Origin: Octopus vulgaris
Taxonomy: Eukaryota
DNA length: 64,000 nt
Direction: 5' to 3'
Assembly (NCBI GenBank): GCA_951406725.2
Contig: OX597814.1
Span: forward strand, 209,126,001 to 209,190,000
A program made the translations under genes and the position numbers. Positions 14,400 through 55,357 of the stretch are shown one piece after another. Numbering within the stretch: position 1 is the first letter of the stretch; the number at the start of each line of letters is the position of its first letter. The notes under the pieces are model-generated. The model was not told the DNA's origin. It did not search any database and worked only from the letters and a program-made list of their open reading frames with translations.

Positions 14400-14819
14400 G
14401 GATCTTTTCGGTTTGAACGGCAGTTTTTAACATAATTTCTAGGTAACTAAAAAATTTTAAACTTCGTATACTGGTAGAATGTGTTTATAAAACATTCTAC
14501 CAGTATTCTGAGAAAATTCTATAGTTTGTAAGATACTTGTTTTTTTTTCTTCAATTTCTGCAATTTCAACCAATCACTGACATCTATTGAGGTAAAAAAC
14601 ATTATCTGCCGTATGAATATGTCCCTCGTATAAGAAACAGATTGGGTTTATTTACATTTGTGAAGAAAAAAAGATACCCCTCCTCCACCCCAAACTCAAA
14701 CCTTAACCCTAACCCTAAAACAGATTGAAATGCAATAGATCGATACTAGGGTCATAATTATGGGTGACAATTTCATATGACACCGCTAGAAAAAACTGCC
14801 GTTCAAACCGAAAAGATCC
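14400..14819. mobile_element. MITE with GGATC termini and 8-bp TSD (Merlin-like), internal CCCTAA repeats
   Basis: 29-bp TIR GGATCTTTTCGGTTTGAACGGCAGTTTTT; TSD CTAATTTC/GTAATTTC. Confidence 0.85.
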
Positions 14820-15735: not shown

Positions 15736-16650
15736 GGCGCAGGCGTAGTTCTGTGGTAAGAAGTTAGATTCTGAACCACATGATTCTGGGTTCAGTCCTA
15801 CTGCATGGCATCTTGGGCAAGTAATTTTATAAATAGCTCCGGGACATCTAAAGTAAGTGGATTTGGAGGAACGAAACTGGGATCTTTACCTTTTGACCGA
15901 CAGATTTTAAAAATAATTTTTTGTAACTAAGTATTATCAAACTTCGTACACTGGTAGAATGTGTCCCATAAAACCTCTTTTACTCTTAGCGCTTTTGAGA
16001 AAAGCTTATATTAAGGAAGTTATTTCACGTTAAAGTTGTAGTATTTCGGTAATTTCAACCAATCAGTGACGTGTATTCAGTTGAATAAAATTACTGTCGT
16101 TGTTTGTCAACAAGAACTTCCAGTGGTGTATATTTCGTTTGTCACTGTTATTTGTGACAACCCTAACCCTAAAATCTTAATCTTAAAACCCTAACTAACC
16201 CTTACCCTAAAACTCTAACCCTAACCATAAAACATTATGACTAAAACCAGTGCAAACGCACGAACGATGTCATAAATAACAGTGACAAATGAAAAATTTA
16301 CCGCAGATAGTTGTTGTTGACAAACAACGGTAGAAATTTTATTCAGCTGAATACACTTCATTGATTGGTTGAAATTACCGAAATACTACAACTTTAACGT
16401 GAAATAACTTCCCAAATATAAGCTTTTCTCAAAAACGCTAAGAGTAAAAGATATTTTATATGACACATTCTACCAGTGTCCGAAGTTTGAAAGTGTTTAG
16501 TTACAAAAAATTATTTTTTAAGTCTGTCGGTCAAAAGATAAAGATCCCGAAACTGAAAGAATCGTGCCCTATATATATATGTATAAAACACTTCAAGATA
16601 ATGCTCCAGCACGGCCGCTGTCCAATGAATTCAGCAAAAGAAGATAAAAG
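15736..16650 (+). mobile_element. Diverged SINE family A interrupted by a MITE
   Basis: Head GGCGCAGGCGTAG..GGGTTCAGTCCTACTG..CTTGGGCAAGT; resumes at GAAACTGAAAGAA after the MITE. Confidence 0.75.
15880..16547. mobile_element. Foldback MITE (about 280-bp arms) with a telomere-like spacer, 8-bp TSD
   Basis: GGATC...GATCC termini, perfect TSD CGAAACTG, arms are reverse complements, centre ACCCTAACCCTAA-like. Confidence 0.9.
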
Positions 16651-16908
16651 ATTGGTATGTCATGTATGCAATATTTGATCAAAGGATGTACATTTTTCAT
16701 CAAAATATGGCCAAACGTGCGTTGTATCCAACTTTTGACAGAATTCTACAAGATGTTTATATCTAAACAAAGGGTTCAAAGGGTAACGGGTGACATTGAT
16801 TCAATTGGTGATCTCATCTGACCAGGAAAAGCTTTTAGCTCTATAGATTATTACGCATTGTAAAACTAGAAAATGTTGATATATTTATTGAATTTATCAA
16901 ATTAAAAG

Positions 16909-17302
16909 CGAGCGGTTACTGTTTATTTCTCGCACTGAGATTTAATAATGTTTACAGTCAGTTTTTCGAAATCAGTGGCAGACGTCACTAGAAAAACTCT
17001 TATATATTTTGCAAAGCAGGCCTAATCTTTCATCGTGACCTGGTGGTTACCGCCCGTTGATAGGAGACAATAATCTCGAAACCGGTCCGGTGCGTATCAC
17101 TCAGGCTTACGAGGAAGGTATGGCCTCCCTTTGCAAATACCTGAAGGTCACAGAAAGTGTGTCTAAAGCCAGCTGGAGACGTTGATCTCCTGGGGGTAAA
17201 AAGCTACAGTAACACCCCCACTTTGTGGTTAACCATATTGAGATGGCTTTTATACTTTACATTGTCGAGCGGTTACTGTTTACATCTCGCTCTGAGATTT
17301 AA
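16909..17302 (+). mobile_element. Retrozyme-like / pLTR-like unit, 357-nt period with 37-bp terminal redundancy
   Basis: Direct repeats 16909-16945 and 17266-17302; HHR-like motif at the apex of a long stem. Confidence 0.55.
17051..17094 (+). ncRNA. Type I hammerhead-like motif (U3-A8, G9)
   Basis: CCG-TTGATAG-GAGA caataa TCTC-GAAAC-CG-GTC-CGG; palindromic ACCGGT stem III. Confidence 0.6.
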
Positions 17303-17341
17303 CAAATTAAGAGTGTTTTCTTTTTAATATTCATGAAATCA

Positions 17342-18088
17342 AGGCGGCGAGATGGCAGAAACGTTAGCACGCCGGGCGAAATGCCTAGCGGCATTTCGTC
17401 TGCCGTTACGTTGTGAGTTCAAATTCCGCTGAGGTCGGCTTTGCCTTTCATCTTTTTGGGGTTGATAAATTAAGTACCTGTTACGCACTGGGGTCGATGT
17501 AATCGACTTAATACCTATGTCTGTCCTTGTTTGTCCCCTCTGTGTTTAGCCCCTTGTGGGTAGTAAAGAAATAGGTAATACCACTAAGCATTTCGCACGG
17601 CGTAAGTACCAGTTACGCACTGGGGTCGATATAATCGAGTTAATCCGTTTGTCTGTCCTTGTTTGTCCCCTCTGTATGTAGCCCCTTGTGGGCAGTAACA
17701 TAAGAATCGTTAGCACGCCGGGCGAAATGCTTAGCAGTATTTCGTCTGCCGCTCCGTTCTAAGTTCAAATTCCGCCGAGGTCGACTTTGCCTTTCATCCT
17801 TTCGGGATCGATTAAATAAGTACCAGTTACGCACTAGGGTCGATATAATCGACTTAATCCGTTTGTCTGTTCTTGTTCGTCCTCTCTGTGTTTAGCCCCT
17901 TGTGGGTAGTAAAGAAATAGGTATTTCGTCTGTCTTTACGTTCTGGGTTCAAATTCCGCCGAGGTCGACTTTGCCTTTGATCCTTTCGGGGTCGATAAAT
18001 TAAGTACCAGTTGCGTACTGGAGTCGATTAGATCGACTGCCCCCACCCCCAAATTTCAGGCCTTGTGCCTAGAGTAGAAAAGAATATT
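17342..18088 (+). mobile_element. Tandem/nested cluster of SINE family B units
   Basis: Three heads or partial heads and three tails; junctions AAAGAAATA|GGTA. Confidence 0.9.
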
Positions 18089-26586: not shown

Positions 26587-26997
26587 GGATCTTTTCGGTT
26601 TGAACGGCAGTTTTTTCTAGCGGTGTCATATGAAATTGTCACCCATAATTATGACCCTAGTATCGATCTATTGCATTTCAATCTGTTCTAGGGTTACGGT
26701 TAGTTAGGGTTAGGGTTAGGGGTGGGGGGGAAGGGTATCTTTTTTTCTTCAGAAATGTAAATAAACCCACTTTGTTTCTTAAACGAGCACAGAATGTTTT
26801 CACCTCCAATAGACATCATTGATTGGTTGAAATTGCAGAAATTGAAGAAAAAAAATATCTTACTAACTATAGAATTTTCTCAATAAAGCCACGAGAAAAA
26901 GATGTTTTATAAATATTCTACCAGTATACGAAGTTTAAAAGTGTTTAGTTAAGTGGAAATTATTTTTTAAAAAATGCCGTTCAAACCGAAATTATCC
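26587..26997. mobile_element. MITE of the 14400-14819 family, opposite orientation
   Basis: TIR GGATCTTTTCGGTTTGAACGGCA; perfect 8-bp TSD TAGGATTA; internal TTAGGG repeats. Confidence 0.9.
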
Positions 26998-54663: not shown

Positions 54664-55357
54664 TCTACGACTGTATTGACTAGTGAGTACTTTTACTTTT
54701 TACGACGACAGGGTATGACTTTTTGGTGACATGGCTACAACTTTTTAGCAAGTCGTGACTATGTAGAGACTCCATAGTTTGCAAGCACATCTACTTTCAA
54801 TTTCTACGACTGTATTGACTAGTGAGTACTTTTACTTTTTACGACGGCAGGGTATGACTTTTTGGGGTCATGGTTACAATCTTTTAGCAAGTCGTGACTA
54901 TGTAGAGACTCCAGAGTTTGCAAGCACATCTTTCAATTTCTACGACTGTATTGACTAGTGAGTACTTTTACTTTTTACGACGGCAGGGTATGACTTTTTG
55001 GGGTCATGGTTACAATCTTTTAGCAAGTCGTGACTATGTAGAGACTCCATAGTTTGCAAGCACATCTACTTTCAATTTCTACGACTGTATTGACTAGTGA
55101 GTACTTTTACTTTTTACGACGGCAGGGTATGACTTTTTGGGGTCATGGTTACAATCTTTTAGCGAGTCGTGACTATGTAGAGACTCCATAGTTTGCAAGC
55201 ACATCTACTTTCAATTTCTACGACTGTATTGACTAGTGAGTACTTTTACTTTTTACGACGACAGGGTATGACTTTTTGGGGTCATGGCTACAATCTTTTA
55301 GCAAGTCGTGGCTATGTAGAGACTCCAGAGTTTGCAAGCACATCTACTTTCAGTTTC
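54664..55357. repeat. Tandem array, 5 x about 139 bp
   Basis: Unit starts TCTACGACTG at 54664, 54803, 54939, 55078 and 55217. Confidence 0.95.

Follow-up and report, generated by a model that had tools for sequence, protein, structure and literature searches.

An ORF-less hammerhead repeat in Octopus vulgaris, probably a non-autonomous passenger of Penelope-like retroelements

Introduction

Non-LTR retrozymes have been described in metazoans with sizes of 220-245 nt in coral, 350-390 nt in mussel, and 330/350 nt in axolotl (Cervera & de la Pena 2020, PMC7229834). The axolotl hammerhead HHR_Amex1 cleaves poorly alone and well as a dimer (PMC7229834). In the giant squid, 235 hammerheads have been counted (PMC6962438). 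The mainly open-access literature that we searched yielded no paper on cephalopod retrozymes, nor one on retrozymes with a tail or internal initiation.

Penelope-like elements (PLEs) form the second group to which the locus described here can be compared. The protein of the anole element PAc nicks AT-rich DNA on both strands (PMC11167929), and reverse transcription begins at two internal positions of the RNA, both 3' of the hammerhead and 30-40 nt apart; the stretch that separates them corresponds to the genomic tail (PMC11167929; PMC8557442). Penelope insertions of the rotifer Adineta have a 31-bp tail and target-site duplications (TSDs) of 8-10 bp (PMC3846280), and the min-HHRs of Cercyon in Schistosoma show a U3-A8 core variant, with about 1,300 matches in S. 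mansoni (PMC4209133). On the basis of co-occurrence and trees, a recent study that covers vertebrates, three insects, and a coral regards solo ("monomer") retrozymes as derivatives of Penelope pLTRs (Li, Clavereau & Pollet 2026, 10.64898/2026.07.22.740005).

Here, we describe an element in a 64-kb stretch of the O. vulgaris genome, referred to as the window. With a probability of about 0.7, it stems from one old insertion event of a multi-copy hammerhead repeat that lacks an ORF and likely travels with Penelope-like retroelements as their non-autonomous passenger; the copy described here is predicted to be dead.

Results

Anatomy and folding of the element

The locus had been flagged from its letters alone by a 37-nt direct repeat (16909-16945 and 17266-17302, three mismatches, period 357), and this repeat is borne out: in 200 shuffles of 16600-17340, the best 37-nt repeat had 12 mismatches. 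Together, the 357-nt unit and its 37-nt tail make an element of 394 nt. Its features, including those of the flanks, are as follows.

16898-16908, unstranded: left TSD, 11 bp; or 8 bp, 16901-16908, if the element ends at 17305
16909-16945, plus strand: first copy of the 37-nt redundancy, the unit start; preceded in relatives by the unit 3' end
16909-17265, plus strand: one full non-coding unit, 357 nt, 43.7% G+C
17001-17006, plus strand: TATA-like hexamer just upstream of the rod, read from the sequence
17008-17137, plus strand: 130-nt imperfect rod (extended stem I) with the hammerhead at its cap; z -5.7, 200 shuffles
17051-17094, plus strand: type I hammerhead; Rfam HH9 match below gathering score; predicted minimum-energy dimer a double hammerhead
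17145-17262, plus strand: branched 3' module, with the highest conservation and abundance in the unit, by depth and by loose contig ends at 17145 and 17262
17266-17302, plus strand: 3' tail, a repeat of the first 37 nt of the unit; 3-5 nt short of the commonest family end
17303-17313, unstranded: right TSD, matching 16898-16908 at 10 of 11 positions

No ORF of at least 100 aa overlaps the element, and all six frames are closed, so that an ORF for a reverse transcriptase (RT) plus GIY-YIG endonuclease is absent from it. In the window at large, none of the 21 long ORFs (of 93) that were compared with Pfam gave a match, so that no Penelope ORF was linked to the family, and no further copy of the element was found within the 64 kb. 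The repeat, its period, the hammerhead, and the absence of an ORF are thus confirmed, in support of the sequence-only reading of a more-than-unit-length copy of a non-coding hammerhead repeat. The flanking TSD, the U3-A8 core pair, and the palindromic stem III are features beyond that reading. The hexamer at 17001-17006 is a putative, possible internal promoter.

The element folds strongly. The predicted energy of the 394 nt is -127.8 kcal/mol (z -4.9, none of 100 shuffles as good), and the linear 357-mer reaches z -4.8. Folding of the circularised 357-mer, which had been proposed as a check, gave -109.0 kcal/mol (z -4.2, none of 100 shuffles as good) with 68% of the bases paired, a high self-pairing as in metazoan non-LTR retrozymes; its reverse strand reached z -3.2, with one shuffle in 100 as good. 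Every stem named beforehand is present in the predicted fold. The description of the whole unit as rod-like was overstated, since it holds for the 130-nt arm, the main source of the folding signal, and the remainder of the unit is branched: 16909-17007 is unremarkable (z -0.9) and 17138-17265 forms a branched fold (z -2.0). Two family variants in the rod arm, 17036 T>C and 17109 A>G, would preserve one pair; they were seen separately, not on one contig. Descent of the branched 3' module from a tRNA was rejected, ARAGORN having found no tRNA.

Viroid-like and HDV-like replicons have a rod-shaped genome and ribozymes in both polarities. The unit has the size of a viroid and folds strongly, which would suit an endogenised RNA replicon of this kind; the alternative of a SINE-like passenger of a LINE belongs beside it. 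Against both stand a single hammerhead in a single polarity, with the motif on the plus strand only, a fold that is branched and not rod-shaped, the lack of a poly(A) end, the lack of a tRNA match with ARAGORN, and very many genomic relatives. We rejected the replicon on its branched fold and single-strand motif, and we regard this whole group of explanations as extremely unlikely.

The hammerhead of this copy

The presence of a hammerhead-like motif was corroborated by an Rfam HH9 match at 17039-17110 (30 bits, E 2.3e-5 in an 801-nt search, against a gathering score of 52); no Rfam match in the window reaches the gathering score. A descriptor composed after the motif had been seen matches once in the window and in none of 100 shuffled windows. 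Stem I is formed by 17051-17056 and 17088-17094, with one bulge, and is followed by the core U3 U4 G5 A6 U7 A8 G9 (17057-17063). A 4-bp stem II (17064-17077) comes directly after position 9, the GAAA box lies at 17078-17081, and stem III is the palindrome ACCGGU (17081-17086). The GUC at 17085-17087 lies where it had been placed, with the predicted cut after 17087. A second hammerhead at 17140-17170 was rejected, as it has no GAAA box and is unmatched in the motif scans and the Rfam search.

The U3-A8 pair is a natural covariation that has already been published (PMC3088659; PMC4209133). As had been pointed out, core position 9 (17063) is G in this copy, and the caveat that this may inactivate it is strengthened by its relatives, which carry A. 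In the hammerhead core, A9 pairs with G12, and A9G would disable cleavage; the literature searched held no report on the effect of A9G on cleavage.

Structure prediction points to a hammerhead that works as a dimer through its palindromic stem III. In the circular monomer, stem II has a pair probability of 0.8-0.95 and the active register of stem I one of about 0.35, and a monomer with a single stem III pair is predicted to cost 5.4 kcal/mol. Two copies of 17040-17104 are predicted to adopt a double hammerhead as their minimum-energy structure, at -42.7 kcal/mol compared with -35.4 kcal/mol for two monomers. The axolotl HHR_Amex1 is alike in that its stem III consists of one pair and a palindromic tetraloop (PMC7229834). 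Since this copy holds a single hammerhead with G9, it is predicted not to release unit-length RNA, that is, to be dead.

Target-site duplication, age, and surroundings

The window is microsatellite-rich animal DNA with many SINE-like and MITE-like repeats, and the element lies in an AT-rich part of it, between duplicated sites of 8-11 bp. None of 4000 random position pairs matched as the TSD does at exact ends, and two of 4000 did so with a 3-nt wobble; among 10,324 AT-rich positions, the left 11-mer matches the right TSD site only. As judged from these comparisons of sequence, a TSD flanks the whole 394-nt element, beyond chance. The last bases of the element resemble the target just upstream of the left TSD, a microhomology because of which the boundary may be placed at 17302 (11-bp TSD) or at 17305 (8-bp TSD).

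The occupied 5' junction is identical in four public sequencing runs (X1, X14, X5, and X11; three organism labels, A, C, and D). No empty site was seen in X3, X14, X5, or X11; X3 and X2 are without flank coverage. In X1, a single contig, of depth 48, covers the flank, and more than 80% of the X1 depth differs from this copy at 13 or more positions (17 differences used, among the 40 of 85 listed). The insertion is old because 3 of 37 positions mismatch in the redundancy and 1 of 11 in the TSD, and because at least 13 positions are unlike the X1 majority. At window position 16875, G stands here and T in all four flank-covering runs, an allele or assembly difference. Separately, X11, X14, X3, and X5 each have one contig of about 1 kb that covers 16909-16975, with 950-1000 nt before 16909 and single-copy depth; these contigs possibly represent a second locus with an identical 5' boundary.

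Several other repeats surround the element. About 27 nt after the right TSD, a SINE-like repeat begins (17340-18038, partial tandem), which looks like an octopus SINE; it has 19 BLAST pieces in the window, many with 85-93% identity. Upstream, a MITE-like element (15879-16548) consists of 281-nt inverted arms, 89% complementary, with a spacer of telomere-like AACCCT units. It is flanked by an identical 8-mer (15872-15879 and 16548-16555), likely an 8-bp TSD, and diverged relatives of it lie near 14400-14612 and 26781-26985. A tandem array at 54664-55357 comprises five units of 139 nt with 96% match, in which a window-wide scan found no hammerhead.

A repeat family in public sequencing runs

Contigs of eight public runs place the element in a multi-copy family. 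Out of 24 runs listed, 20 contain part of the element, and none has half of its words; exact-pattern scans gave no match in metagenome contigs or viral contigs. The contigs aligned to 16560-17345 number 2505 in X1, 916 in X2, 139 in X7, and 75 in X8, where a single locus can be counted in several runs and summed contig depth is not equated with copy number.

At 17063, the family carries A: 44948 of 45226 units of depth in X1, 76 of 93 in X7, and all depth in X2 and X8. G9 is therefore a rare variant in the family, perhaps not confined to this locus. It is not strictly private, with a depth of about 280 in X1 (compared with 48 for one locus) and 17 of 93 in X7. Among the 40 of 85 differences listed, none changes 17057 or 17062, because of which U3-A8 appears to be the family state. 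Hence the family carries one type I hammerhead with a conserved core (A9), and this copy has G9.

The helices of the hammerhead vary in a constrained manner. Stem III palindromes of relatives include ACCGGU, ACCGCGGU (CG inserted; three contigs each in X1 and X2), and ACUGCAGU (X8, and X7-like), and stem II occurs as GAGG/CCUC (one contig in X8) and GGGA/UCCC (two contigs in X7). Relatives thus change stems II and III yet preserve pairing and palindromy, with few contigs for each variant.

These observations bear on an explanation that dispenses with a ribozyme-driven RNA cycle, in which the element would be a pLTR with an internal deletion, its template being linear multi-unit transcripts that stay uncut, without a circle and with the hammerhead as baggage or a regulatory element. 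Such a mini-Penelope would agree with the anole PLE, which uses unprocessed RNA and whose ribozyme mutants still insert in vitro (PMC11167929), with the lack of cleavage in eight of nine Xenopus dimers (10.64898/2026.07.22.740005), and with a G9 that may exist in more than one copy. However, A8/A9, the palindromy of stem III, and the pairing of stem II persist in relatives amid changes at other positions, which points to selection on the ribozyme, and the helices have the lengths seen in canonical retrozyme hammerheads and differ from those of the minimal ones of PLEs (PMC4209133). We consider this explanation unlikely.

In contigs of other copies, the hammerhead is joined directly to the 3' module without an intervening ORF (for example, X7 records 19 and 21; X1 record 4), so the short unit is a trait of the family. 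Over the 3' module, summed contig depth exceeds that over the hammerhead half by a factor of 20-45 in X1, X2, X7, and X8, with ratios of 22 and 20 in X7 and X8, which we guess to be RNA, and of 23 and 45 in the DNA runs. Among the runs listed, none that contains part of the element is recorded as RNA. In X7 and X8, the 5' flank is uncovered and the depth has the same shape as in the DNA runs, which has no bearing on expression or circles. Among the loose contig ends listed (24 of 360 and 24 of 46), ends at the module borders indicate that diverged sister repeats also carry 17145-17262. This module is likely the enzyme-binding region.

Two further observations concern the same part of the family. 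One diverged variant in X7 (17110-17218) has a depth of 1376, and its T at 17161 is absent from both DNA-type runs; it may be a single low-copy member that is highly expressed, or lie inside a host transcript. In X1, X2, and X7, six opposite-strand joints occur at different places within 17032-17256, consistent with the inverted 5'-truncated arms typical of Penelope insertions.

Head-to-tail junctions and a recurrent 3' end

In four runs (16760-16975), the 37-mer is directly preceded by the 3' end of the unit itself, in 8 of 51, 9 of 56, 12 of 81, and 9 of 55 contigs. One X2 contig is head-to-tail, with a joint of 17302 to 16963 and unit-start letters between, and four X8 contigs have a similar loose end and continue into the unit start. 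The 37-mer had been open to being read as a long TSD or unique flanking DNA; it is neither, as other copies carry it right behind the 3' end of their unit, and the short TSD is a distinct sequence beyond the element. Of the tandem copies for which a search had been proposed, the crossing of the unit junction was found in relatives; an array with two complete hammerheads was not, the contigs being too short for two units.

Contigs recurrently end at 16948-16950 before unrelated flanks (8 of 51, 9 of 56, 15 of 81, and 9 of 55 in four runs). This is the same register as 17305-17307, that is, 40-42 nt into the next unit. The sequences past this point are AT-rich, often hundreds of bases long, and mutually unrelated (agreement 0.54-0.68), and the aligner may overshoot by a few nucleotides into such flanks. 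Given these recurrent stops and the unit 3' end before 16909, the 37-mer belongs to the element itself, and 3' ends in the family fall preferentially 40-42 nt past the unit junction. A Penelope-type tail at a fixed 3' end is thus present in the family, at 40-42 nt, and measures 37 nt here.

The recurrent ends support an outer start site of reverse transcription. In X1, a depth step and at least 14 loose ends lie at 17262, which is 3 nt before 17265, and X7 has one such contig; these weakly suggest an inner start site near 17262-17265, and a sister family with a different tail also accounts for them. One other copy appears to begin at 16909 (X7 record 17). The 5' end of this copy near the inner site is a weak hint, and not an independent one, since the start of the repeat is its 5' end by definition. 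In X3 and X5, one contig each repeats 16928-16949 around a 21-nt piece resembling the cut-site region 17081-17101, a pattern suggestive of two template switches soon after the reverse transcriptase had started.

The tail, the TSD, and the U3-A8 core are all PLE traits, and the 20- to 45-fold deeper 3' module is what abundant truncated PLE ends carrying it would produce. The element could on these grounds be what remains, as pLTR plus tail, of a 5'-truncated Penelope element of the autonomous, coding kind. In that case, the tail sequence should lead into kilobases of ORF, but here it recurs 357 nt upstream; in relatives it runs into a non-coding unit, and six closed frames argue against it as well. 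This origin is very improbable. An intact autonomous Penelope element was rejected, given the absence of an ORF and a hammerhead that is canonical and not minimal. A plant LTR retrozyme, with type III hammerheads in its LTRs and a 4-bp TSD, was also rejected, as the motif here is of type I, lies outside the repeat, and is accompanied by an 8-11-bp TSD.

Discussion

The element is likely a member of the metazoan non-LTR retrozymes. It shares their unit size (about 170-400 nt), a G+C content below 45%, the absence of an ORF, and strong self-pairing, as well as one type I hammerhead with a 6-bp stem I and a 4-bp stem II, and it matches the mussel and axolotl retrozymes in size, G+C content, and hammerhead type (PMC7229834). 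It departs from these in its U3-A8 core and, as far as this copy is concerned, in being a solo monomer that carries G9. It also has a tail and a TSD, neither of which is reported in the accessible text of PMC7229834.

The element also resembles endonuclease-bearing PLEs, as far as these are described in the published text available, in its tail (optional in PLEs, 30-40 nt, downstream of the hammerhead), its AT-rich target, its TSD (8-10 bp in PLEs), and the U3-A8 core variant. In contrast to them, it has no RT-endonuclease ORF, and its tail measures 37-42 nt. The minimal hammerheads of PLEs have a 7-8-bp helix II and an extra base after position 9 (PMC4209133), whereas the element has neither. 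Solo retrozymes, in which dispersed full-length monomers are seen as dead offspring with an origin from PLE termini, offer a further parallel, although the ends of insertions do not serve as evidence in the available text of that study (10.64898/2026.07.22.740005). The order of hammerhead, conserved module, and tail, and the size of the TSD, all without an ORF, suggest by analogy mobilisation in trans by a Penelope protein. We therefore view the element as likely a non-LTR-retrozyme-like mini-Penelope, inserted by target-primed reverse transcription.

The cycle that we propose builds on the observed anatomy, family, flanking duplication, and recurrent 3' end, and on the A9 of relatives. Head-to-tail source loci would give rise to multi-unit RNA, in which adjacent hammerheads would pair via the palindromic stem III and excise unit-length RNA. 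This RNA may be ligated into a circle, which would be poorly cut by its lone hammerhead. A Penelope RT/GIY-YIG protein would bind near the conserved 3' module and nick AT-rich DNA with an 8-11-nt stagger, and cDNA synthesis would begin within the RNA, at the outer one of two sites separated by about 40 nt. For this copy, the tail, the 3' module, an uncut or re-ligated ribozyme site, and then the remaining unit would have been copied, until synthesis stopped when the inner site was met again.

The cDNA crosses both the ribozyme cut site and the unit junction, so either a circle or a multi-unit RNA left uncut would have served as its template; from a linear monomer that had been cut, only 17088-17302 would result. 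Between the circle and the uncut linear multimer, the odds are about even. A Penelope-type tail is the best reading of the terminal redundancy, which alone is no evidence of a circle, because linear multi-unit RNA also explains such a tail. A more specific scenario would make the element the footprint of one lap of a Penelope RT round a 357-nt RNA circle, from the outer site through the ligated ribozyme junction to the inner site, which would have been occupied by a second enzyme priming from the opposite DNA strand. We put this one-lap scenario forward tentatively, as possible and rather doubtful.

Being old and probably dead, this copy is less suitable as material than younger ones would be. 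The unit is a small, defined RNA that could be used in the published in vitro Penelope assay, as a circle compared with a linear dimer. If the one-lap scenario is true, the element would be genomic proof of animal retrozyme circles as transposition intermediates of Penelope machinery, and a hammerhead active only as a dimer would protect the circle from self-cutting. The Penelope link of animal retrozymes has so far been argued, in the sources available, from co-occurrence, shared hammerheads, and trees; a retrozyme-type unit with a Penelope tail and a short TSD provides an argument for this link from an insertion scar.
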